DNA of 64,000 bases from Sumerlaeia bacterium. Lineage in GTDB: Bacteria; Sumerlaeota; Sumerlaeia; SLMS01; JAHLLQ01. The stretch spans positions 273,800 to 337,799 of the forward strand of contig JAVJSW010000068.1 of NCBI GenBank assembly GCA_040219255.1. The letters are read 5' to 3'. The position numbers and the translations under genes are program-made. A model generated the notes under the pieces. It did no database searches, was not told the origin of the DNA, and saw nothing but the letters and a program-made list of their open reading frames with translations. Positions 17,692 to 32,126 of the stretch are shown in pieces (position 1 is the stretch's first letter; the number at the start of each line of letters is the position of its first letter).

Positions 17692-20364
17692 TTACCGGCT
17701 CGTCAACTTCTCCACCCGGTTCAGCACATCCTTATACCCCGCGTCGATTTTCACGAGTTGCTTGAACATCGCGGCGGCGCGGTTGAAGAAGTGGGCTTCT
17801 TCGAGGAGTTCCGCCGTCTGGTACACCCAGCCCATGAGTTCGTCGAGTTCCGCCGGGTCGTCCTGGAGGGAGAGTTTGAGTTCGCCGAGGGTGTCGCCGG
17901 CCATGTCGAAGAGGCGTTTTTTGGCGTAGCAGTAGGCCAGTTTCGCGAGGGGGAGGCGGCTGGCTTCCGGTTGGCGGCTGGCGCGTTGGTAGTAGGTGAT
18001 GGCCTGGCCGAAATCCTCGGCCTCGCGGGAGAGATCGCCGAGTTCCATGAGTTGGTCGTAGCTGGCTTTGCCGCCTTCGACCTCGCGCTGGAGGAAGGCG
18101 AAGCGTTTGCTGTCGAGGGCATGGCTGACGAGGGCGCGCAGGCGTTTCGTTTCTTTGTCCTGGGGGGCGCGCTGCTCGAGCAGTTTGTGGAATTCGGCCG
18201 CTTCGTCCGCCGCGCCCGAGTCGATGGCCATGGGGATCAGGCGGTGGAGCATGCGAGTGGCTTCTTCGCTCTCGACGACGTCGCCGCCCATGAGCCTGGA
18301 CACGTGTTTCTTGGCGCTCTTGTAGTCCTTCAGGACGAGGTAGGCTTCGCCGAGGGCGCGGCTGATTTCTTCCGTTTCCTCGCCGCCGTTGGCCAGATAG
18401 AGGGAGTAGGCGTGGATCATTTCGGTGAACATGGCAGCGCGGCGGTAGGCCTCGCCGAGCGCCGACAGAGTCGGCAGGTGGTGGGGGCTGCGGCGCAGGA
18501 TTTTCTGGCTGGCGTCGCGCAGGGTCGCGACTGGGTCCATGCCGCGGGCGGCCATGGCTTTGATGGTTTCCAGGGCGGCGTCGTAGCGGCCTTGCTCGGC
18601 CTGGAGGTCCGACAGCAGGTCCAGCAGCGGAAAGGTGATGCCGGTGGTTTTCGTTTTGGCGGCGGCGTCTTTAGGGTCGGCGGAGCCGCCGTTGTCCTCG
18701 GGGGCCGGTTCTTTCGCGGCGGCTTTGGTGACCTTGGTGAAGGCGTACTCCAGCGTGTTGGCCACGTCGCCCCGGGCGGCCGGGTGGTTTGTCAGGATCC
18801 GGTCCGCGAGGCCGACGGCGCGCTCGCCATGGCCGCCCAGAACGAGGGCCCGCAGGGCCTCCAGGTTGAGTTCCAGATCGGCTGGGGTGTTGTGGGCGCG
18901 CTCCACCAGTTCGGCCAGTTCCTTGGAAAGGATGGCGTTCTCGACGCGGCGCAGCAGCATGTTCAGCCGGCCCTCGCGCCCGGCGTCGTGGGCGCCGGGG
19001 ACCTTCAGAGCGGCCTCCGCCGCGCCGCGGGCCTGATCCATGTCTTTCATTTCAAAGTGGGCGTGGGCCAGGATTTCCAGCCGCTCCGCGTCCTTCGGCC
19101 CTTCCTGGAAGGACTTGCGGCCCAGGAACGCGCGGGCCTTGTCGGCCTTGGCGTTGCTCATCAGAACGTGGGCGTAGCGCAACGCCAGCGCCGCGTCCTG
19201 GGGTTTGTCCTCGACTTCCTGGGCCAGCACATTCTCCAGCCGGTCCGGGTAATCCATTTCCTCGTAGAGCTGGATCAGGCGGTGGCGCTTGCCCGGTTGG
19301 TTGCGATCGAGCGCCAGGGAGCGCTCGAGCCACTTCATCTGCGCCTCGCGGTTGGCGGTGCGTTCCGCCTGGGACGCCAGGATGTTCAGCACATCCGGCC
19401 GCTCTTCCTTGTTGAGGATGTCGCGCAGGATCTTGTTGCTGCGAGGCATGGGCACGCGCTCCACCTCGCCCAGGCGCTTGGCCGCCTGCACGGCCTCGGG
19501 AAAGCGCCGCGCCGCGACCAGGAGCGAGGCGTAGGCCGCCAGCGCTTCCTCGTCCTCGCCGCCGACGCCATAGCGCTCCATGGCATCGAGGGCCTCCTCC
19601 TCGTGGCCCTGCTCGAGAAGCTCGTCCAGGTAGGCTTCCTGAAGCTGTTCGTCGTTGGGGAATTTTTCGAGGAGCTGGCGCAGGTAAGTCAGGTATTCCG
19701 CCGGTTTGCCTTCCTCGTTGGCGAGGCGGCAGAGCATTTCGAGTAGGTCCGCGTCGCGGTCGCCGGCGGCGTAGAGGTCGCGCAGCATGGCCGAGGTCTC
19801 GCCCCGGGCGCCCCGGCGGAAGCGCTCCATCGCCACGGCGCGCAGAAGCCGGTCCTGGCCCGGGCGCCACAGAAGGCCGATGCGGCTGACCAGCAAGGCG
19901 GGTCCGCCGAGGTTTTTCTGGTCCATGGACCGCAGCGCCCGATCCCAGAACCAGCGGAAGAACAGCTCGACCGCCAGGATCAGCACGGCACCAGCCAGCG
20001 CCCCGCCCGCCGCCGACAGCCAGCCGAGCGCCGGATTGCCGAATTCCTCGAGCGTGAACCAGTACCCCGCCGCCGCCGCCAACGCTCCTGGCCCGGCGAA
20101 CCCGGCGGCCATACTGACAAACGGCCGGCCCTTGGCCCTCGGGTCCAGACTGATCAGGTAGCCGAGCACCGCCAGCGCCGCCAGAACGCCCGCCACGGGA
20201 AACAAGAGGGGCGCGAACGCGAGCGGATCGTCGAGCGTGAACTGGTTCACGATGCGCCCCTGCAACCCCTCGTCCATCCAGAAAAGCTGGAGCAGGACGG
20301 CTCCGCCCACCCCCGCCAGACAGGCGGCCCAAAAGAAAACAAGCGATGAAACACGGCGCATCAT
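17692..20364 (-). CDS. Membrane protein with a large tetratricopeptide-repeat region
   Basis: About four N-terminal TM helices followed by helical TPR-like repeats; C-terminus IDAGYKDVLNRVEKL. Confidence 0.85.
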   Translation of the reverse strand: MMRRVSSLVFFWAACLAGVGGAVLLQLFWMDEGLQGRIVNQFTLDDPLAFAPLLFPVAGVLAALAVLGYLISLDPRAKGRPFVSMAAGFAGPGALAAAAGYWFTLEEFGNPALGWLSAAGGALAGAVLILAVELFFRWFWDRALRSMDQKNLGGPALLVSRIGLLWRPGQDRLLRAVAMERFRRGARGETSAMLRDLYAAGDRDADLLEMLCRLANEEGKPAEYLTYLRQLLEKFPNDEQLQEAYLDELLEQGHEEEALDAMERYGVGGEDEEALAAYASLLVAARRFPEAVQAAKRLGEVERVPMPRSNKILRDILNKEERPDVLNILASQAERTANREAQMKWLERSLALDRNQPGKRHRLIQLYEEMDYPDRLENVLAQEVEDKPQDAALALRYAHVLMSNAKADKARAFLGRKSFQEGPKDAERLEILAHAHFEMKDMDQARGAAEAALKVPGAHDAGREGRLNMLLRRVENAILSKELAELVERAHNTPADLELNLEALRALVLGGHGERAVGLADRILTNHPAARGDVANTLEYAFTKVTKAAAKEPAPEDNGGSADPKDAAAKTKTTGITFPLLDLLSDLQAEQGRYDAALETIKAMAARGMDPVATLRDASQKILRRSPHHLPTLSALGEAYRRAAMFTEMIHAYSLYLANGGEETEEISRALGEAYLVLKDYKSAKKHVSRLMGGDVVESEEATRMLHRLIPMAIDSGAADEAAEFHKLLEQRAPQDKETKRLRALVSHALDSKRFAFLQREVEGGKASYDQLMELGDLSREAEDFGQAITYYQRASRQPEASRLPLAKLAYCYAKKRLFDMAGDTLGELKLSLQDDPAELDELMGWVYQTAELLEEAHFFNRAAAMFKQLVKIDAGYKDVLNRVEKLTSR

Positions 20365-20599
20365 GGTCTCGGAACAGCACCTCGCGGACTGGTGGGTTGA
20401 AGGGAAGGCCTGCGCCCTGAACAAATCCTGTACCGTGATGCGGCCAACGGCAAGCCGACGGCAAGGGGCGATTGGGATTTCTTCAGGTCTGGCGCGACAC
20501 TTCCGTTCCGACCCGCGAAAGCTGACCTTGCGGAATCACCGCCCGATTGTGTCTGATTTCGAATCCCGTCCGGCCCCTCGCCGCCCAGGCCACCGACCC

Positions 20600-21733
20600 A
20601 TGCGCTCTCCCTTGCTCCCGCTGATAACCGCCGTTCTCGCGCTCGGTTGGCAAACCACCCGCGCCGAAAGCCCCCTCCGCCCCGCCTTCCACCGCGGCGT
20701 CTGCCTCGAAGGCGGCCTGCCGCTCGAGCCCTGTCACATCGAAGAACTCACCGCCACGGGCGTGACCCATGTGTCGCTCAACCCGTTTGGCTGGATGGAG
20801 AGCGCGTCCTCCACCGAAGTCCACATGCGAACCGAATCGGGCGGCGGGGGCGGCGGGCGGTGGTTTGGCGAGCGCGACGATGGCCTGCGCCAGTACGCCT
20901 CGCTGGCCCGCGAGGCGGGGATGACGGTGATGCTGCGGCCCCACATCTGGCTCCGCCGCGGGGGCAAGGACGCCCAGGGCAACGACCTCTGGCTGGACGA
21001 CATCGGGTTCGAGACGGAGGCGCAGTGGCAGGCGTTCTTCGCCAGTTACACCCGCTTCGCCGTGCATTACGCCGCGCTGGCCGAGGACGCGGGCATGGCG
21101 TGGTACAGCGTCGGCGCGGAAATGACACGCGCCACCCGCGAACGCCCCGAGGACTGGCGCCGCGTGATCGCCGCCTGCCGCGAGGTTTACAGAGGCAAGC
21201 TGATCTACAGCGCGAACTGGTACGAGGAAGCGGAGGCCCTGGCATTCGGCGACGCGCTGGATGCGATCGGGGTTCAGGCGTACTTTCCCCTAGCCGAGGC
21301 ACCGGGCGATAGGGCGGAGGATCTGGCGGCGCGGTTCGAGGGTTGGCTCGACCGCATGGAGGCGGTTTCACGGCGCGCGGGGAGGCCCGTGATCTTTACG
21401 GAAATCGGTTATAAGGCGACGCCGAACGCGCTGGTCGAGCCGTGGGTCTGGCGCGAGGACGGCGGTCCCTCGCCGGCGACGCAGGCGCTGGGTTATCGCG
21501 TGGCACTCGCGGCGATGGCGGACGAGGAGTGGCTGGCCGGGGCGTACTGGTGGAAGTACCACGCCGACCCCTGCGCCACGGCCCAGCCCCGCCGGCCGGG
21601 CGATTTCACCTGGCAGGGCCAGCCCGCCGCCGAGATCCTGGCACGGGCCTATCGAGGTCTGGACATGGAAACGCCCGGTTCCTCGGGCGAAGAACCGGGC
21701 GCGGAGGCTTTGGGGAACGGGGGCGGGCGTTAG
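20600..21733 (+). CDS. Secreted glycoside hydrolase family 113-like TIM barrel
   Basis: Signal peptide; VMLRPHIW, SVGAE, YSANW, IGVQAYFPL, PVIFTEIGY and GAYWWK. Confidence 0.85.
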   Translation: MRSPLLPLITAVLALGWQTTRAESPLRPAFHRGVCLEGGLPLEPCHIEELTATGVTHVSLNPFGWMESASSTEVHMRTESGGGGGGRWFGERDDGLRQYASLAREAGMTVMLRPHIWLRRGGKDAQGNDLWLDDIGFETEAQWQAFFASYTRFAVHYAALAEDAGMAWYSVGAEMTRATRERPEDWRRVIAACREVYRGKLIYSANWYEEAEALAFGDALDAIGVQAYFPLAEAPGDRAEDLAARFEGWLDRMEAVSRRAGRPVIFTEIGYKATPNALVEPWVWREDGGPSPATQALGYRVALAAMADEEWLAGAYWWKYHADPCATAQPRRPGDFTWQGQPAAEILARAYRGLDMETPGSSGEEPGAEALGNGGGR

Positions 21734-23280: not shown

Positions 23281-23700
23281 ATGGGTCTTTTCGATCGTCT
23301 GACAGGAGGGGGAGCGATCGAGCTGACCCCCAAGAGTTCGCTCGCGCTTTCCGCCATCGTCATGATGGCCGCCGACGGCGTTGTCGAGGAGTCCGAACTG
23401 GCCTCCCTCGGCCAGATCGTGCGCGACGACAAGAAAGCCTTCCAGGATGCCTACAAGGTTTACAAGAACAAGAAGCCTTCGGAAATCATCCCGATGGTCG
23501 CCGAGAAGCTGAACCAAAGACAGCGCCTCGCCACCATCGCCATCCTCCTCGACATGGCCATGGGCGACGGCCACCTGGACAACAACGAGAAGGCCCTCCT
23601 GCAAGCCTTCGCCGATGCCTTCGAACTCGCCGAAGGCGACGTGACGGAAATCATCGACGTGATCGCCATCAAGAACAACTTCTCGATTTTCGAGGAATAA
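23281..23700 (+). CDS. TerB family tellurite-resistance protein
   Basis: MMAADGVVEESE and DMAMGDGHLDNNEK double motif. Confidence 0.85.
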   Translation: MGLFDRLTGGGAIELTPKSSLALSAIVMMAADGVVEESELASLGQIVRDDKKAFQDAYKVYKNKKPSEIIPMVAEKLNQRQRLATIAILLDMAMGDGHLDNNEKALLQAFADAFELAEGDVTEIIDVIAIKNNFSIFEE

Positions 23701-23787
23701 GCCGGTCTCCAGCCCGCCCCCGTGCGGCGGGACGGAGCGTGATTCTCCCTTATTCCAGTTGATTCTCTGAGGACACATCGGGCGAGC

Positions 23788-24918
23788 ATGAGAGATCGTT
23801 TCGATCCGATTCTTCCCGCAGGAGACCCGCACCCCGTGCCCGCCCTTCGCCGCCTGATTCTCGTCGGAGCCTTCGCGCTCCTGGCCCCCCTCCTGCCCGC
23901 CCAGGACCTCGACTGCCCCAGCGCCACCTGCGCCGTGGTTCGGCAGGACGGGGCGACCACCGGCTCCAGCATCGGCGTGTACGAAACCATCCAGGCGGCG
24001 ATCAATGACGCGGCCATCCGTGGCCACACGGAAATCGTGGTCTATCCGGGGCGGTATTATGAGAACCTGCACTTCTCCCTCGGCGGCATGACACTGCGCT
24101 CGCTCGAGGGGCCGCTCTTGACGTGTATCGATGGGTCCACATCGGCGATTTCGGACGCCCCCACCATCGGCATGGATTCGGTGCAGGGACTGAGCTTTAT
24201 CGGTTTCACCATTTCCGGCGGCGGGTACGGCGTGCTGGTTTCCATTTCCGCGGAAGCCACCATCCGCAACTGCGTGATCGAGGGGAATCGCATCGCGGGA
24301 GTTGGAACATTCTGGAACGAAGAGCTGCTTCCCCCGCCAGCTGTCAGTGTGATCAATTGCGTGGTCAGTAATAACTCTGGCAGTGGCATTGCAATGACGA
24401 GCTTACTTAATTCACGCGGATGTCCACTCGTTTCGCACATGAGTGTTCACAATTCAATCATAACCAACAATGGCCGATATGCTGTCGACTACGGTGTGGT
24501 CAATTCCATATGTTGTTGTTCCAGTTTCCTTTTCACGGATCGATTTCAGTTTTCGCACAACTTGCTATCAGCGAATGCAGAAGGAAATCTGGGCCCCTCC
24601 ATTGCTAATGGAAGCATTCCCATCGGCACCGCAAATATCCAAAACCAATCCCCCGGTTTCATCGGCTCCGCCACCGGCTGCGGCCCGGACGTTCGCCTCC
24701 TGAGCACCTCCAACGCCCGCAACCAAGGCTGGCCCGCCGCCGCTTACCGCGACCCCGATGGGTCGCGCAACGACATGGGAGCTTTCGGCGGCCCCTTCGC
24801 CGAGGCCTACTACACCTCGATGGACGACGGCCCCGTCATCAAGCAGGTCACCCCCCTCGGCACCATCCGCGCCGGAGACGGCCCCTTCACCATCGAAGCC
24901 GTCGGCGCGGCGAGGTAA
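23788..24918 (+). CDS. Secreted right-handed parallel beta-helix protein, paralog 1
   Basis: Signal peptide; TIQAAI, VYPGRYYEN, IRNCVIEGN and VINCVVSNN; DPDGSRNDMGAFGG tail. Confidence 0.88.
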   Translation: MRDRFDPILPAGDPHPVPALRRLILVGAFALLAPLLPAQDLDCPSATCAVVRQDGATTGSSIGVYETIQAAINDAAIRGHTEIVVYPGRYYENLHFSLGGMTLRSLEGPLLTCIDGSTSAISDAPTIGMDSVQGLSFIGFTISGGGYGVLVSISAEATIRNCVIEGNRIAGVGTFWNEELLPPPAVSVINCVVSNNSGSGIAMTSLLNSRGCPLVSHMSVHNSIITNNGRYAVDYGVVNSICCCSSFLFTDRFQFSHNLLSANAEGNLGPSIANGSIPIGTANIQNQSPGFIGSATGCGPDVRLLSTSNARNQGWPAAAYRDPDGSRNDMGAFGGPFAEAYYTSMDDGPVIKQVTPLGTIRAGDGPFTIEAVGAAR

Positions 24919-26079
24919 GCCAAGCCGCCGCCGAAGACTCTGAAATGCCCCCTGTATCGAACAGGCACCCGCACCCGAAAAAGGAGCCTCGTCCTCTTGA
25001 AGTTTCCAGCCCAGTTTCTCATAGCCGCCGCCATATCGTGCTTTGCGATGACGGCATTCGCCCAGGATTTCGACTGCCCGAGCGCGGATTGCGTCGTGGT
25101 TCGCCAGGACGGCGCCACCACCGGCTCGCAAATCGGCGTGTACGACACCATTCAGGCAGCCATCCTTGCGGCACCCTCCCAGGGCTTTAGCGAAATCTTG
25201 GTCTATCCGGGGGAATACCGCGAGACGCTGCAAATCAATCAGGGCGGTCTGACCTTGCGGGCAATCGACGGCCCTCTACTGACTTGCATCAATGGGGCGG
25301 ACGACACGGACTCGACCATTCCCGTGGTCAGTTTGGGGTTCGCGCAGGAAGTGACCCTGATCGGATTCAACATCCGCGGCGGGGGCTATGGAGTTTTTCT
25401 TTCGGATTCCGCAGAAGTTCGGCTTCAGAATTGTGTTGTTGAAGGGAATCGCATTTCGGGGATCTACTCGGAATGGACAACTATCAACGTGACGCCTCCA
25501 CAGCTTACTGTTTCCAACTGTGTCGTGACCAACAATGCGGGAAATGGCATCGACGTTATCCTCCCTTCCGTGAATCCCACAACTTGCTCTTTTACCACGA
25601 TTCAAAATAGTATCGTCAGCGAGAATGCCGGAGTGGGTATTTATGTGAGCTTTCTTACGGCCTTCTCGACGCAATCCACACCAAATGAGTCCGAGCGGTT
25701 CCAAATGCAATACAACCTTGTGACCGCAAATGTCGTTGGGAACTACGGTGGGTTCCTATTGGGGATTGGCGGAAAATTGCCGATCCCGGCGACCAATGCG
25801 TCGAACCTGAGCGTTGGATTTCTTGACTCCAGCCCAGGCTGCGGACGCGATGTTCGCCTCCGCACGAATTCCCAGGCCCGCAACGCGGGATGGCCCACCA
25901 CCGCGTTTCGCGATCCCGACGGCTCGCGCAACGACCTCGGCGTCTTCGGCGGCCCCTTCGCAGCGGGATTCTTCACCACCATCGACGACGGGCCCGTCGT
26001 CAAGCAAGTCACCCCCCTAGGCACCATTCGCATTTCCGACGGCCCCTTCACCATCGAAGCCGTCGGCGCGGCGAGGTAA
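24877..26079 (+). repeat. 42-bp perfect direct repeat at the 3' ends of the two beta-helix genes (24877-24918 and 26038-26079)
   Basis: GACGGCCCCTTCACCATCGAAGCCGTCGGCGCGGCGAGGTAA occurs in both. Confidence 0.9.
24997..26079 (+). CDS. Secreted right-handed parallel beta-helix protein, paralog 2
   Basis: TTG start after AAGGAG; same N-terminus (AQDFDCPS..VVRQDGATTGS) and C-terminus as paralog 1. Confidence 0.88.
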   Translation: MKFPAQFLIAAAISCFAMTAFAQDFDCPSADCVVVRQDGATTGSQIGVYDTIQAAILAAPSQGFSEILVYPGEYRETLQINQGGLTLRAIDGPLLTCINGADDTDSTIPVVSLGFAQEVTLIGFNIRGGGYGVFLSDSAEVRLQNCVVEGNRISGIYSEWTTINVTPPQLTVSNCVVTNNAGNGIDVILPSVNPTTCSFTTIQNSIVSENAGVGIYVSFLTAFSTQSTPNESERFQMQYNLVTANVVGNYGGFLLGIGGKLPIPATNASNLSVGFLDSSPGCGRDVRLRTNSQARNAGWPTTAFRDPDGSRNDLGVFGGPFAAGFFTTIDDGPVVKQVTPLGTIRISDGPFTIEAVGAAR

Positions 26080-26083
26080 TCCC

Positions 26084-27232
26084 GTGATCCGTTTTCCTTT
26101 TCTCCTTCTCGCCGTCGCCCCCCCGCTCCTGCCCGCCCTCGCGGCGGCCCAGGGCAGCGCCGTCTCCAAGGCCTTCTTCGAGGTCCAGAACTTCGACCCC
26201 ATTCCCCTCGCCGTCGCCGACGAACCGACATCCGTTCCCTATCCGCCGGGCGACCCGATGCTGGCGTTCAACCTCTCGGGCACGAGCGGCACCATCACCA
26301 CCGCCGATCCGGCTTTTGGCGACGGCGGCCTGCCCCTCGGCCCGCATCACTTCCGCATCCTTCTGGAGGACTCGGAAGGCCGCACCGGGGCAAGCGCCTG
26401 GCGCGTCTTTCGCCACGATGGCACGCCGGTCATCACCGCCTACGAATGGACGCTGTGCACGTCGCGATGGAGCATGGGCAACATCCCGCCCCAGCCCGCC
26501 TGCGGAGCCATCGCCCGCGTCGCCGTCGATCCGCCCCGCCCCGAGGCCCAGGCCAGCGTCGATTTCAACACCCGCGACCTCGGCGTCGGCACCTACTACT
26601 TCTACATCCGGTTCTTCGATCAAGACGGTTTCACGACCGAGTGGCGCGAGTTCGTGTTCGAGATCGAACCCAACCTGCCGCTCCTTCGCGCCGAATGGAC
26701 CCTGGACCCGGAAACGCCCTTTGGCGATGGCAACGCGGTCGCCATCGGCGAGCCGGACGAATTCGGCGATCACCCCCTGACGGCCCAGGTCAACCCCGCC
26801 ATCCTGCCAGCGGGAAAGAACACCATCTACCTGCGCGTCCAGCGCGACGTGCCCCGCGCCGAAGGCTCGCCCGAACCCGGCCCGGCCGACGGCAACTGGA
26901 GCGAATTCACCGAGATTCCGGTGAACCGCTGTCCCGAAGTCACCGCCCGCACCCCCGCCGCGAGCCGCCGCACTATCAACAGCAAGCGCGAAACGTTCAG
27001 CGTCACCGCCTCGGACATCGATGGCGACGGCTTGACTTACAGCCTCTTCGCCGATGGCGAGGCGGTCGCTTCCGGCCCCCTGCCCCTCGCCTACGTCTTC
27101 CCCGCTCCCGGCACCTACAACGTGGTCCTGCGCGCGACGGATGGCACCTGCCCCACCGACACCGCCTGGACGATCACCGTGACGGGAGGCCAAGGCATCA
27201 TCCTCCGCGGCCGACGGGGATTCCCGGGGTAG
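26084..27232 (+). CDS. Secreted Ig-like/PKD repeat protein
   Basis: Signal peptide; three partial Ig-like repeats, then a PKD-like domain (ASDIDGDGLTY..YVFPAPGTYNVVLRATD). Confidence 0.8.
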   Translation: MIRFPFLLLAVAPPLLPALAAAQGSAVSKAFFEVQNFDPIPLAVADEPTSVPYPPGDPMLAFNLSGTSGTITTADPAFGDGGLPLGPHHFRILLEDSEGRTGASAWRVFRHDGTPVITAYEWTLCTSRWSMGNIPPQPACGAIARVAVDPPRPEAQASVDFNTRDLGVGTYYFYIRFFDQDGFTTEWREFVFEIEPNLPLLRAEWTLDPETPFGDGNAVAIGEPDEFGDHPLTAQVNPAILPAGKNTIYLRVQRDVPRAEGSPEPGPADGNWSEFTEIPVNRCPEVTARTPAASRRTINSKRETFSVTASDIDGDGLTYSLFADGEAVASGPLPLAYVFPAPGTYNVVLRATDGTCPTDTAWTITVTGGQGIILRGRRGFPG

Positions 27233-27407
27233 CCCGAAACGGGAGCGTCCCAAGACCCCCTGCGAATAAGCCACGCAACAAACCCCCCGCGCCTTTCCCT
27301 TGCCGAGAGCGGGGCGGTTCGGCGATTGCTTCTCACCCGCGAGGGGAGCCTCGACCGGCTCGCCCCGCGCAATTTCCGGTGCCCATCGACCGGCCCGAGG
27401 TACTTCA

Positions 27408-29219
27408 TTGGCTGAATTCACCCAAGATCGCATCCGCAACTTTTCCATCATCGCACACATCGACCACGGCAAATCGACGCTGGCCGACCGCCTGCTGGAA
27501 ATGACCGGCACCCTGACTCAGCGCGAGATGCGCGCCCAGGTGCTGGACTCGATGGACCTGGAACGCGAGCGCGGCATCACCATCAAGGCCCAGGCCGTCC
27601 GCCTCTTCCACAAGGCGCCCGACGGTGTGATCTATCAGCTCAACCTGATCGATACCCCCGGCCACGTGGACTTCACCTACGAGGTGTCCCGCTCGCTCGC
27701 CGCCTGCGAGGGCGCCGTCCTCGTGGTCGATGCGGCCCAAGGCGTCGAGGCCCAGACCCTCGCCAATGTGTACCTGGCCCTGGAAAACGACCTGGAGATC
27801 GTTCCGGTCATCAACAAGATCGATCTGCCGAACGCCAACATCCCCGCCGCCAAAGCCGAGATCCGCGACGCGGTGGGCCTGAACCCGGACGACGCGATCC
27901 CCATCAGCGCCAAGACGGGCGAGAACTGCAAGGCGCTCCTCGACACGATCGTCGCGAAAATTCCGCCGCCCATCGGCAAACCGGACGAGCCCCTGCGCGC
28001 TCTGATTTTCGACTCGATTTACGATGCCTATCGCGGCGTCGTGTGCTATGTGCGCATCGTCGATGGCTCGATGCGCGCCGGCGAAAAGATCCGCTTCATG
28101 CGCGAAGGCCGCGATTACGACGTCAGCGAAGTCGGCGTCCTCACCCCGGCCCAGGTCAAAGTCGAAGAACTGTCCTGTGGCGAGGTGGGATTCTTCACCG
28201 CCGCCATCAAGAACATCCGCGACGTTCGCGTCGGCGACACCATCACCAGCGCCCGCAAACCCGCCACCAAGGCCCTGCCCGGCTACAAGGAAGCGCGTCC
28301 AGTGGTTTTCGCCGGCATCTATCCCGCCGCCAGCGACGATTACGACGATCTGAAGGACGCGCTGGAAAAGCTCCAGCTCAACGACGGCTCGGTCCACGTC
28401 GAGCCCGAAGTCAGCGAGGCCCTCGGTTTCGGCTTCCGCGCCGGATTCCTCGGGCTTCTGCACATGGAAATCATCCAGGAACGGCTCGAGCGCGAGCACG
28501 ACCTCGACCTCGTCTTCACCGCGCCATCGGTGAACTATCGCGTCACCAAAACGAACGGCGAAACCTCCTTTATCGAAAACCCCGCCAAGCTGCCCTCGGC
28601 CCAGGAAATCGACGTGTTCGAGGAACCGATGGTGATTCTGAACATTTATTTCCCGCCCAGCTATATGGGCAACGTGATGAAGTTGGCGACGTCGAAAAAA
28701 GGCCTGCAAAAAGAAATGGTCTATATCAATCCCGAGCGCGTGAAGCTGACCTACGACATGCCGTTGGCGGAAATCGTGACGGACTTTCACGACCGGCTCA
28801 AGGCCGCGACCTCCGGCTACGCCAGCTTCGATTACGACATGGCGGGTTACGCGCCGCAAAACCTGGTGAAAATGAACATCCTGATCAACGGCGAACCGGT
28901 GGACGCGCTGTCGGTGATCGTGCGGCGCGACGATTCCGCCCACAAGGGGCGCCAGCTCTGCGCCAAGCTCAAGGAAATCGTGCCGCGCCAGATGTACGCG
29001 GTGGCCATCCAGGCCGCTATCGGAGGCAAAATCGTCGCCCGCGAAACCGTCTCGGCCATGCGCAAAGACGTCACCGCCAAGTGCTACGGCGGCGATATCT
29101 CACGTAAACGCAAGCTCCTCGAAAAGCAGAAAGAGGGCAAGAAGCGCATGAAGCAATTCGGCACCATCGAAATCCCCCAGGAGGCGTTCCTGGCGGTGCT
29201 GAAGCTGGATCAGGATTGA
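27408..29219 (+). CDS. lepA: Elongation factor 4
   Basis: [32 protein letters not shown] and [17 protein letters not shown]; TTG start after GAGG. Confidence 0.98.
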
Positions 29220-29431: not shown

Positions 29432-31924
29432 TCAAAACACCGCCCACCCCTCGACCCGCGATGCCGCGTCTTTGCGGTAGATCGACACGTCGTTGAAGAA
29501 CACGTCGTAGGCCGCTCCCGTGCCGGCGTTGAAGTTGAAGAGCCGCAGGGTCTCGATGTCCAGCGACCCGCTGACCGGCGCGAGAGAGCCGGTCAGGGTG
29601 ATGGTGGCGCTTTCCTCGCCAAAGGGCACCACCCGCAGGCTGTAGGCGGTGGGGGCGGTGAGGGTGAATTCGATGTCGAGGCCCGCCGTGGTGAAGGGCA
29701 GGGCGGTCATGCGCTCGCCGAGGGAATCCTGAACGAAGTACTGGCCTTCGCCGCCTCGGAAGTAGAATTCGAACAGGTTCTCGCCCGAGGCGTTGCGCAG
29801 CCCAAAGCCCGCCGAACCGCCGGTGTTCATGTACCCGTTGTCCATGTGCAGGCGCAGCGATTGACCCGTGTCGAGCGGCGTGAAGGAGCGGCTGGCCTCC
29901 ATCACGGTGGCGGTCGATTGATTGTAGAGGCCCCAGGCCCGGCCGCCGGTGTCGATGTCGCGGTCGGCTTCGGCGGCGGCGGGGCCGTTGCTGGCCGAGG
30001 AGCCGATGAAGGCGCCGCTGGTGGGCGAGGCGCCGGTGATCTGCCAATCGCCCGCCCAGCCCGCGCCGCCCGACGGACCGCCCGCCCAGCCACCGCCATA
30101 GGCCGCGTCCTCCGCCGAATCGGCGGTCGTGAGGGCCAAATCCTGAGGCACGACGATCACGGTTCCAAAGGTCTGCAACTGCGGAATCGTGCATTCAATC
30201 ACGCCGGGGCTGGTTTCCGTCCAGTTGATCGGCCGGGGAAAGACCGTCGCCGCGTCGTCCGGCGAGCCATAGAGCACGTCCTCGGGCACGAGGCCATTGG
30301 GCAGCGTCAGCGTCACCACGAGGTTCGTCAGCGTCGAAGGCGCAGCGGTCGTCGTGGTCCATTCCGAGGCGCCATCCAGATGGAGCAGCGTCCACGCGGC
30401 GCCGCCTTCGGCCGTGCGATAGGAATGGGCCAGGGTTCCGGCGATGGCCAGATCGGTCTCGCGCGGTTGCACACCGGGCCCGTGGTTGATGCGGTAGAGG
30501 GCGGCATCGTGGCCGTTGTATTGGCGGATGGTGGCGAAGTTCGCGGCGCTCTGGACCTGGGCGTCGGGATAGAACAGCGAGTTCAGGCCGCGGATTTCGC
30601 CGGTGTCTTCCTTGGGCTCGCCGGCCACCATGAAACTGCCGCCGCCATAGAGATGCGCGCCCATCAGGAGGCGCAGGTTCGCATTGGGCCATGACGTTTG
30701 CGAGGGATTCATGTCGGCAGGATAGCACTTCGACACGAACCGCTTGCCCGATTCCGCCACGCGGTTGGCCACCATGGCGGCCACCTGATCGTAGCGCGGC
30801 TTGTGGAAGTCCCAGTTCTCGACGAACAGGAAATCGCTGACGTCATAGAACTGCTCGATGCCTTCCTCGGCGATGTTGTTCAGCGTGGTCAAGCCGCCGG
30901 GCCGTTCTTCCTGAACGAGGGCCTGCACATCGCTGGTCAGTTTCGCCAGCATCGTGGACATGGGGGTGCCGTTGAAACTGCTGCCGGGCGAATAGTAGGG
31001 CTCGTTCCAGCCGTAAGTGTCCAATTCATAGCCATCGAAGGTCACCATGCCGGAGCCGTCCAGGCTGGTCCGCAGTTCATTCATCAGGTGCGTGTTCCAC
31101 GCCGTGTCCGGCGCGAAGGCCGTCAGGTAATACCACACCCCGCCCAGGTCCGCCTCGCGCCCCACATTGCCATTATAGAACGCGATGTTGTCGCCTCCCG
31201 CGTTCGTCAGGTGGCCGTTGGGGAAAGCGCTCAGCACCGGCGGATCGGCAGCGTAGGCTGCCGTGTAGGCGATCGCCAGGATGTTCTTGGCGCGGGCTTC
31301 GGAGATCTTGTTCTGGATGTCGCCCACCTCGATGTGGAAGCCGAACGGCGGCTGGGTGTAGGACGCGCTGTCAGGCGTGTAATCGCCGTGCGCGGGAAAC
31401 CAGTCGTAGTACTCGATGGCGTTCAGGTAACAGTCGGTCAGCAGGTCCGTCTTGGCCGTGTAATTCCCGCCGACGCTGCCGAACAGCGTGTAGAACCCGT
31501 AGCGCACATCGTCCGCCGTGTCCGCCACGACGGAGTAGATGCGCTCTTCCTCGTCGAGCTTCAGGGCGCTGTCGTAGAGTTCGACCTCCAGAAGGTGCCC
31601 GCCCTCGGGCAGGCCGGCGGGGAAATCGAAGTTCGTGTACTCGCCGGCCGGGGCGCGGGTTTCATCGGACAGCACCTCGCCATCCAGCCCCGTCACCCGG
31701 GCCCTCAACGTGTCGTTTCCGTCCAGGCTGCCGGAATTTTGCACCCGCACCGTAATGCGCCCCGTTTCATCGGGGCGGGCCGCCACCTGCCAGAGGAAAA
31801 CGCGGTCGATGGCGGGAATCTGGGCCTGGGCATCCGGGGTCAGAAGGGCACCGGCGAGGCCGGCCACCGCATAGGCGGCGGCGCGAAGGGGTCGTTGAAT
31901 GGGGCGAATACCGAAGGGGCGCAT
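29432..31924 (-). CDS. Secreted glycoside hydrolase family 66 (dextranase/CITase-like) with a C-terminal accessory domain
   Basis: RYGFY, NAIEYYDW..H, IAYTAAYAA, FDGYELDTYG and ENWD; signal peptide; tail ASRVEGWAVF. Confidence 0.82.
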   Translation of the reverse strand: MRPFGIRPIQRPLRAAAYAVAGLAGALLTPDAQAQIPAIDRVFLWQVAARPDETGRITVRVQNSGSLDGNDTLRARVTGLDGEVLSDETRAPAGEYTNFDFPAGLPEGGHLLEVELYDSALKLDEEERIYSVVADTADDVRYGFYTLFGSVGGNYTAKTDLLTDCYLNAIEYYDWFPAHGDYTPDSASYTQPPFGFHIEVGDIQNKISEARAKNILAIAYTAAYAADPPVLSAFPNGHLTNAGGDNIAFYNGNVGREADLGGVWYYLTAFAPDTAWNTHLMNELRTSLDGSGMVTFDGYELDTYGWNEPYYSPGSSFNGTPMSTMLAKLTSDVQALVQEERPGGLTTLNNIAEEGIEQFYDVSDFLFVENWDFHKPRYDQVAAMVANRVAESGKRFVSKCYPADMNPSQTSWPNANLRLLMGAHLYGGGSFMVAGEPKEDTGEIRGLNSLFYPDAQVQSAANFATIRQYNGHDAALYRINHGPGVQPRETDLAIAGTLAHSYRTAEGGAAWTLLHLDGASEWTTTTAAPSTLTNLVVTLTLPNGLVPEDVLYGSPDDAATVFPRPINWTETSPGVIECTIPQLQTFGTVIVVPQDLALTTADSAEDAAYGGGWAGGPSGGAGWAGDWQITGASPTSGAFIGSSASNGPAAAEADRDIDTGGRAWGLYNQSTATVMEASRSFTPLDTGQSLRLHMDNGYMNTGGSAGFGLRNASGENLFEFYFRGGEGQYFVQDSLGERMTALPFTTAGLDIEFTLTAPTAYSLRVVPFGEESATITLTGSLAPVSGSLDIETLRLFNFNAGTGAAYDVFFNDVSIYRKDAASRVEGWAVF

Positions 31925-32126
31925 CGGGGGGGGGGTCCTTGTCAAAACGCTTACACACAGTCGCCGCTCGCAATTCAGCCCGGTCGATCCCCGGCGGGAC
32001 CCTCGTGTTTGGCCAAGACCCTTGTCATGAAGGCTTGAACGAGCGGAAAGGCGCCGACTGTTGGACCGATGGAATAGAAGGGGGAGCCAGGACGGTCAAG
32101 AGTAAAAGCGCTTTTGCACTCTGAAA

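Follow-up and report, generated by a model that had tools for sequence, protein, structure and literature searches.

Two neighbouring genes for secreted beta-helix proteins that stop abruptly in the same short sequence, followed almost at once by a gene for a secreted protein of immunoglobulin (Ig)-like repeats, raise the question of whether the three products work together and, if so, how they are held to one another. The genes lie in a 64,000-nucleotide (nt) stretch of DNA from a Sumerlaeia bacterium (GenBank assembly GCA_040219255.1, contig JAVJSW010000068.1, forward-strand positions 273,800 to 337,799), which we refer to as the window; the beta-helix proteins are called heads, their common end the tail, and the repeat protein the stalk. 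An original prediction, made from the letters of the window alone, held that interchangeable heads donate beta strands to three incomplete Ig domains of the stalk. Our analysis points to a conserved head–stalk cassette, in which one or two heads of the pectin-lyase fold would be co-transcribed with a secreted stalk, the products forming a complex in the cell envelope. That the head and stalk are docked via the tail is, on the sequences and models compared here, a tentative reading, to which we give slightly less than an even chance.

Tail-bearing heads and three-repeat stalks are encoded side by side

The open reading frames (ORFs) of head 1, head 2 and the stalk are arranged head to tail, all on the + strand (Table 1), and the stalk ORF starts 4 nt past the stop of head 2, the distance originally given. 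No terminator-like site was found on the + strand within 23500-27500. The stalk has a signal peptide of its own and is therefore a separate secreted protein, not a frameshifted continuation of head 2. A frameshift or read-through fusion of the two genes was considered as well and was ruled out, since the relatives of the stalk also have signal peptides of their own.

Tail-bearing heads, counted from matches that reach the end of the head profile, were found only in the genome of the window (G000, two heads) and in G019 (one head) out of 61 genomes (G000 and 60 relatives); the stalk family was found in the same two genomes only, out of 75 genomes of the phylum. In a second phylum of 285 genomes, heads reaching the profile end were present in G295 and G240 only, and a full-length stalk was likewise confined to these two when five candidates per genome were scored, a candidate list crowded by sorting-domain matches. 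Co-occurrence of the tail with genes for partial Ig repeats had been set beforehand as a check on the original prediction, and the two do go together: in 4/4 genomes, from two phyla, a three-repeat gene with a signal peptide lies immediately downstream of a tail-bearing head. The spacing between them is 4 nt in the window and a 1-nt overlap in G019, where the last base of the head is the first base of the stalk; in the other two genomes it is an overlap or 10 nt. This constant adjacency, as a feature of gene order, suggests that the tailed head and the three-repeat stalk act as a pair, and the two products very probably function together.

The genes around the cassette look unrelated to it in the window (BioY, DUF892 and TerB upstream, LepA downstream) and are different in G019, where the neighbours include genes for a radical SAM/SPASM protein and for a thiazole kinase; only the pair is therefore conserved. 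There may be a fifth head–stalk pair: the head P0003 and the full-length stalk relative P0010 (36% identical) are both encoded on a contig 6844 bases long, which is probably one and the same. A genome scan for related loci returned 11 loci, with a full-length family member only on the G019 contig, and a metagenome scan yielded four loci, all of them partial. Tail-bearing heads were found in 0/86 genomes of the phylum of G076 and 0/79 genomes of the phylum of G078, in searches run without a positive control. One further candidate for a tail-bearing head, L018, was rejected as a multi-domain relative.

Table 1. Positions in the window of the heads, the stalk and their parts.
Feature	Positions	Strand	Description
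Head 1	23788..24918	+	Secreted right-handed beta-helix protein, 376 aa; ORF, Pfam Beta_helix
Head 1 tail	24823..24915	+	Final 31 residues, DDGPVIKQVTPLGTIRAGDGPFTIEAVGAAR; conserved family C-terminus
Head 2	24997..26079	+	Secreted right-handed beta-helix, 360 aa, pectin-lyase fold
Head 2 tail	25984..26076	+	Residues 330-360, predicted beta-hairpin
Stalk	26084..27232	+	Secreted, 382 aa; signal peptide, three repeats and PKD domain
Stalk repeat 1	26156..26422	+	aa 25-113; hhalign match to 77-aa unit
Stalk repeat 2	26423..26671	+	aa 114-196; hhalign match to 77-aa unit
Stalk repeat 3	26672..26926	+	aa 197-281; hhalign match to 77-aa unit
Complete PKD/Ig-like domain of stalk	26933..27199	+	aa 284-372; Pfam PKD, AlphaFold2, VIA

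The heads end in a conserved tail outside the beta-helix fold

The description of the heads as secreted beta-helix paralogs with a common abrupt end was upheld. They are 51% identical (E 9e-127), both begin with a signal-peptide-like segment, and both exceed the cut-off of Pfam Beta_helix PF13229 (30 bits for head 1 and 42 bits for head 2; cut-off 25.9). The AlphaFold2 model of head 2, built like that of the stalk with an alignment of 11 sequences, has a mean predicted local distance difference test (pLDDT) value of 79.3 and a predicted template modelling (pTM) score of 0.79, with pLDDT >=90 over most of the helix core. Its structural matches in VIA include a capsule depolymerase (6c72_A, Z 19.7, root-mean-square deviation (rmsd) 2.8, 208 residues aligned), the alginate lyases 6kfn_A (Z 19.5) and 7dmk, the pectate lyase Pel9A (1ru4_A, Z 18.6) and the epimerases AlgE4 (2pyg, Z 17.3) and AlgG (4nk8, periplasmic alginate epimerase, Z 15.0). 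The heads are probably proteins that bind or cleave polysaccharide. The invariant columns of the head alignment hold mainly Gly, Asn and Asp that belong to structural motifs.

Both heads finish in DDGPV(I/V)KQVTPLGTIR..DGPFTIEAVGAAR and then stop. A word-index search for the head family gave 8 proteins at E <=0.001 from 3227 candidates, the two of the window included, and these were aligned together with three heads recovered from genomes. In all 11 members the stop lies within 4 residues of one alignment column, and in 7/11 the final residue is Arg. Mean pairwise identity is 0.38 in the tail, compared with 0.23-0.24 in the helix core, and reaches 0.47 in the motif that precedes the tail, D.DG(S/T)RND.G.(F/Y)GGP. 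The tail is a property of the family rather than the product of a truncation at this locus. No longer, fused form of the head C-terminus turned up among 207 candidates, which is weak evidence.

The two heads of the window are also alike at the DNA level over the tail. Their last 13 codons plus stop (42 nt) are identical base for base (24877-24918 and 26038-26079), the next-longest run of identical codons between them being 5. Elsewhere in the heads, identical residues have an identical codon at 92/171 positions, which gives a 13-codon run a P of about 3e-4. This suggests that the tail has either been the sole target of gene conversion or been under strong constraint.

In the AlphaFold2 model the tail of head 2 forms a hairpin (strands 334-341 and 352-358), and the pLDDT blocks over residues 321-360 are 59, 56, 65 and 61. 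None of the 50 structural alignments listed by VIA for head 2 extends past residue 327, which makes the tail an appendage that lies beyond the beta-helix fold. Its conservation, its fixed end, its homogenisation between the paralogs and its position outside the fold argue that it is an interaction element.

The stalk consists of three related repeats and a complete PKD domain

The three repeats of the stalk proved to be real. They are homologous to one another in alignment, and all match a profile of 71 tandem units taken from other proteins (hhalign 97.3, 98.4 and 95.6%; E 1.7e-11, 5.4e-15 and 1.2e-8 for repeats 1, 2 and 3). The complete Ig/PKD domain said to follow them was also recovered: PKD (PF00801), the sole Pfam domain seen in the stalk, matches residues 294-358 with 25.3 bits (cut-off 23.5), the AlphaFold2 model has eight strands at 285-366, and comparison with solved Ig and Fn3 modules gave VIA Z values of 9.3-10.2, with 4r5o_A (Z 10.2, rmsd 2.4, 83 aligned), 3pdg_A and 3pe9_A (both Z 9.6) at the top.

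The model of the whole stalk has a mean pLDDT of 80.5 and a pTM of 0.48. Repeat 1 is modelled with strands at 25-34, 40-44, 86-96, 101-103 and 107-111, repeat 2 at 117-125, 144-152, 169-179 and 188-194, and repeat 3 at 200-206, 245-254 and 276-281. Strands of at least 3 residues thus number five, four and three, apart from bridges of one or two residues, compared with eight in the PKD domain. F- and G-like strands are present in each modelled repeat, such that any deficit would be N-terminal. The structural matches of the stalk in VIA are dominated by the PKD domain and barely cover the repeats as single domains: in the two-domain matches over 196/197-368, about 85 of the 135-148 aligned residues belong to the PKD domain. 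Foldseek, with low TM values, likened the stalk to generic rods of tandem Ig-like domains. No solved structure related to the repeats came out of sequence searches of the PDB, in which GbpA (2xwx) scored best, with E 0.0039 over 28 residues.

An exhaustive HMMER search with the stalk gave 710 proteins at E <=0.001, most of which match the PKD domain. A small family (P0010, P0085, P0052, P0078, P0157, P0058, P0116 and P0124) has the layout in full, with a signal peptide, the three repeats, a domain resembling PKD and a C-terminal part that varies. Three units directly follow the signal peptide in 9/11 aligned members of the stalk family and two units do so in P0058; in the two Zixiibacteriota-type stalks the units were read by eye. 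What follows the repeats differs between genomes, being a PKD domain in the window and a type IX secretion system (T9SS) sorting domain in the second phylum, where, in the stalks of G295 and G240, the signal peptide precedes three canonical AEYFIDTDPG units, and these are succeeded by one more domain and then the sorting domain. The stalk of G019 (P0085) ends in 423 aa (L016:6647-7915 (-)) that match nothing in Pfam, NCBIfam or PDB sequences and that show, by eye, an HG...C pattern that recalls peptidases of the caspase fold.

Repeats of the same type also tile large proteins, where P0019 holds 38 matches, P0011 holds 31 and P0071 holds 7, at a median spacing of 77 aa (106 spacings). In P0071 the seven units begin directly after the signal peptide, and some of the array proteins end in T9SS sorting domains. 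The array proteins match weakly to the C-terminal parts of Y_Y_Y, Big_13 and GbpA_D3; Y_Y_Y was reached in array proteins only, via many weak stretches, and Y_Y_Y (PF07495) gave no match in the stalk of the window at E up to 1. A search of PDB sequences with P0071 found nothing below E 0.06.

Relatives of the heads carry a complete Ig domain or a sorting domain in the same chain

Multi-module relatives of the heads have the same motif at the end of the helix, D.DG(S/T)RND.GA, followed in cis by a complete Ig domain of about 115 aa, of which we collected 15 distinct examples from 12 loci. This domain is Pfam Ig_Rha78A_N (E 4e-24 in L053). In L053 itself (L053:1315-3861 (+)), beta-helix modules alternate with Ig_Rha78A_N at least three times, with one Ig domain per helix module. 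The stalk repeats share the signature of the F-G part of the cis domain (Y..R.RV..G..W..W....F), and repeat 2 aligns with the E-F-G part of this domain at hhalign 67% (E 5e-5) and repeat 1 at 36%, compared with 1.7% for the canonical 77-aa unit against the cis domain and 0.4% for repeat 3. A widespread, uncurated 77-aa 'AEYF' repeat is now placed beside a defined Ig family.

The segment from the end motif to the YEIEVG C strand of the cis domain is 40-49 aa long in 14/15 cases, the remaining case not having been measured, and the heads carry 39-43 aa after the same motif. The statement in the original prediction that the repeats begin at a C strand stands as far as a likeness by eye between their opening, (A/Q)(E/Q)Y.I, and YEIEVG is concerned; as a description of the fold it was deduced rather than observed.

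Two single-module beta-helix proteins of about 400 aa from the second phylum carry a T9SS sorting domain of their own (Por_Secre_tail, 38.7 and 40 bits; cut-off 27 bits). In G295 and G240 the sorting domain is found on the stalks (30 and 28.8 bits) and their heads are without one. This contrast with the sorting-domain-bearing relatives argues, at the level of domain composition, that the head may depend on the stalk. No C-terminal sorting domain (PF18962 or TIGR04183) was found in the three proteins of the window, and genome-wide TIGR04183 gave one match in G000 and none in G019.

How the head and the stalk might be held together

The N-terminal half of the stalk is invariably made up of three small repeats, Ig-like and of the 'AEYF' type. 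In the docked arrangement, the 30-residue C-terminal hairpin of the head, with its fixed end, would dock on this three-repeat module, and the variable C-terminal half of the stalk would supply reach or anchoring. Several points weigh against docking. Profile comparison of the tail with the PKD domain and with repeats 1-3 gave hhalign values of at most 0.9%, and the resemblance between the tail and the PKD domain's A/B strands, which had been part of the original prediction, had no statistical support in the same comparison (0.9%, 6 columns). Most repeat blocks have pLDDT values of 80-94 when modelled without a partner, and the 77-aa unit occurs in arrays of 31-38 copies without heads. No conserved catalytic cluster is evident in the head alignment. 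The loci number four or five in total, those within one phylum are not independent, and six further stalk-family members (P0052, P0078, P0157, P0058, P0116 and P0124), whose contigs agree in length with that of no known head, stand outside the adjacency count. The tail could also cap or stabilise its own helix, its low pLDDT in a model from an 11-sequence alignment being weak evidence, and conserved adjacency also fits with a shared pathway in which the two proteins make no contact.

These points come together in the alternative that survives best, although we still think it somewhat unlikely: that head and stalk are co-regulated secreted proteins with linked function, acting on the same substrate or surface, and that the tail caps or stabilises, within its own chain, the C-terminus of the beta-helix. 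The confident models of the repeats alone, the head-less arrays and the lack of any profile link between the tail and a part of the stalk are all consistent with it, as is the ESM Atlas model of a head, in which the chain is a single compact body (pTM 0.78). However, linked function alone leaves unexplained the stronger conservation of the tail relative to the helix core, its fixed last residue and its homogenisation between the paralogs. Relatives complete the helix fold without a tail, and it is likewise unexplained that the heads of the second phylum have no T9SS sorting domain while both of the similar single-module proteins that were examined have one.

As to how a docked tail would make its contact, the cis arrangement in the multi-module relatives brings up a naturally split domain of the Ig_Rha78A_N type, in which the head would keep the first two strands as its hairpin and the stalk the rest, the two parts complementing each other in trans. 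Indirect support comes from the fused relatives, from the match in length between the tails and the segment before the C strand, and from the low strand count of the repeats. It is weakened by the arrays that have no donor, by the confident stand-alone models, by the mismatch in number between heads and repeats and by profile links that fall short of significance, among them the best alignment of the tail to the cis domain, on A-strand columns 8-19 (hhalign 1%). On balance, we consider a split domain unlikely. If it did exist, strand complementation would fasten a beta-helix protein that lacks a sorting signal onto a stalk, and in phyla with a T9SS, where only the stalk holds a sorting domain, the head would be carried along by its partner for export or anchoring. 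The T9SS is described in a review (PMC9251779) as transporting folded proteins and needing a folded C-terminal domain. In T9SS organisms a split domain would make the cassette a candidate for co-export of a partner without a sorting domain. It would further provide a novel route to modular surface complexes, with strand complementation attaching an enzyme-like beta-helix to an unrelated stalk.

The original prediction in full, with three repeats that all lack their A/B strands and interchangeable heads that donate hairpins to a scaffold of three sockets, appears improbable. It draws on the same comparison with the cis domain, which directly follows the helix in the relatives: the length of the segment before the C strand, the opening motif of the repeats, the alignment of repeat 2 with the E-F-G part, and the insignificant placing of the tail on A-strand columns. 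It also draws on the three to five long strands per repeat, against eight in the PKD domain. Against this, three of the four genomes have a single head at the locus to serve three repeats, which is a poor match for three sockets with interchangeable heads; the unit tiles 31-38 times at a 77-aa period without donors and in P0071 starts directly after the signal peptide; the repeats are modelled with confidence on their own; and the hhalign values against the cis domain are very low for the tail, the canonical unit and repeat 3. Finally, a role for the head as a periplasmic factor that matures or modifies the stalk, such as a NosD- or epimerase-like protein acting on a stalk-borne glycan, is very improbable, for despite a weak NosD match of head 2 (27.1 bits, cut-off 23.6), the structural likeness to AlgG and AlgE4 and the expectation that T9SS-phylum heads without a sorting domain would alone remain periplasmic, no conserved catalytic cluster is evident, lyases and depolymerases score equal to or above the epimerases, and the fixed-end tail is left unexplained.

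Comparison with known systems

Strand complementation between head and stalk would have parallels in systems where such complementation between proteins is established, namely pili in which like subunits polymerise. In chaperone-usher pili, as proposed for the cassette, a strand of one protein completes the Ig-like fold of another. There the strand missing from the acceptor is the C-terminal G strand and an N-terminal extension acts as donor, whereas in the cassette the proposed donor is a C-terminal hairpin, the modelled repeats keep their F and G strands, and there is no polymer of like subunits. Neither the usher (PF00577; E. coli control positive) nor the PapD-like chaperone (PF00345; controls positive) was found in any of the four genomes, of which G000 is 92% and G019 88% complete, and the cassette is not a chaperone-usher system. 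Type V pili (FimA/Mfa) of Bacteroidota, which occur within the same broad group of T9SS-using bacteria, are built by donation of C-terminal strands to the neighbouring subunit; their subunits are lipoprotein precursors that are activated by proteolysis and polymerise head to tail. A Pfam scan found no match to the FimA/Mfa family in the three proteins of the cassette.

Enzyme-like heads on a repeat scaffold also recall the cohesin-dockerin cellulosomes. The original prediction had set the cassette apart from these, correctly as far as domains go, as Pfam, read up to E 1, shows neither a cohesin nor a dockerin domain in any of the three proteins. Unlike a cellulosome, the cassette has one or two heads and no large repertoire of enzymes, and within the genome of the window the tail is found on the two heads only.

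Other proteins carry the parts of the cassette in other combinations. Multi-module proteins such as L053 share the helix module, the end motif and the F-G signature, but join helix and complete Ig domain in one chain, whereas in the window the chain of the head stops about 43 aa beyond that motif and it is the next gene that encodes the Ig-like units, which are shorter and threefold. The large T9SS proteins with tandem 'AEYF' units (P0011, P0019, P0071) are built from the same family of units as the stalk repeats; they differ in having 7 to 38 of them, with no head gene known beside them. T9SS cargo is the class to which the stalks of G295 and G240 belong. The parts are thus of known kinds, and what is new here is the conserved pairing, the tail with its fixed end and the possible split of an Ig_Rha78A_N-type domain. 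Literature searches returned no description of the arrangement, of strand complementation as a means of attaching an enzyme-like beta-helix to an unrelated repeat stalk, or of the AEYF motif. Even without a mechanism, the cassette is a small, uncharacterised two-gene module common to two phyla.

Genomic surroundings of the cassette

The G+C content is 0.58 across the two heads (24001-26000), compared with 0.63-0.68 in the flanking bins. This, together with the presence of the cassette in only G000 and G019 within the phylum, hints at acquisition by transfer. A GH113 glycoside hydrolase gene (20237-21733, +) and a gene for a GH66-like protein (29432-31945, -) lie a few kb to either side of it, and glycan-active genes are therefore found near the cassette. 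In G019 the radical SAM/SPASM gene (L016:10370-12070 (-)) is directly upstream of the head and on the same strand, which is not so in the window.

In both G295 and G240 the pair adjoins a gene for a small outer-membrane beta-barrel protein (OMP_b-brl; L038:8454-9071 (-) and L069:4701-5327 (-)). Inspection by eye also picked out genes for a response regulator of the sigma-54 type and for a histidine kinase near the second-phylum pairs (L038:4227-5816, L038:9460-11544, L069:8096-9508 and L069:9472-11883), and in this phylum the pair and its neighbours may be a larger, regulated cassette.

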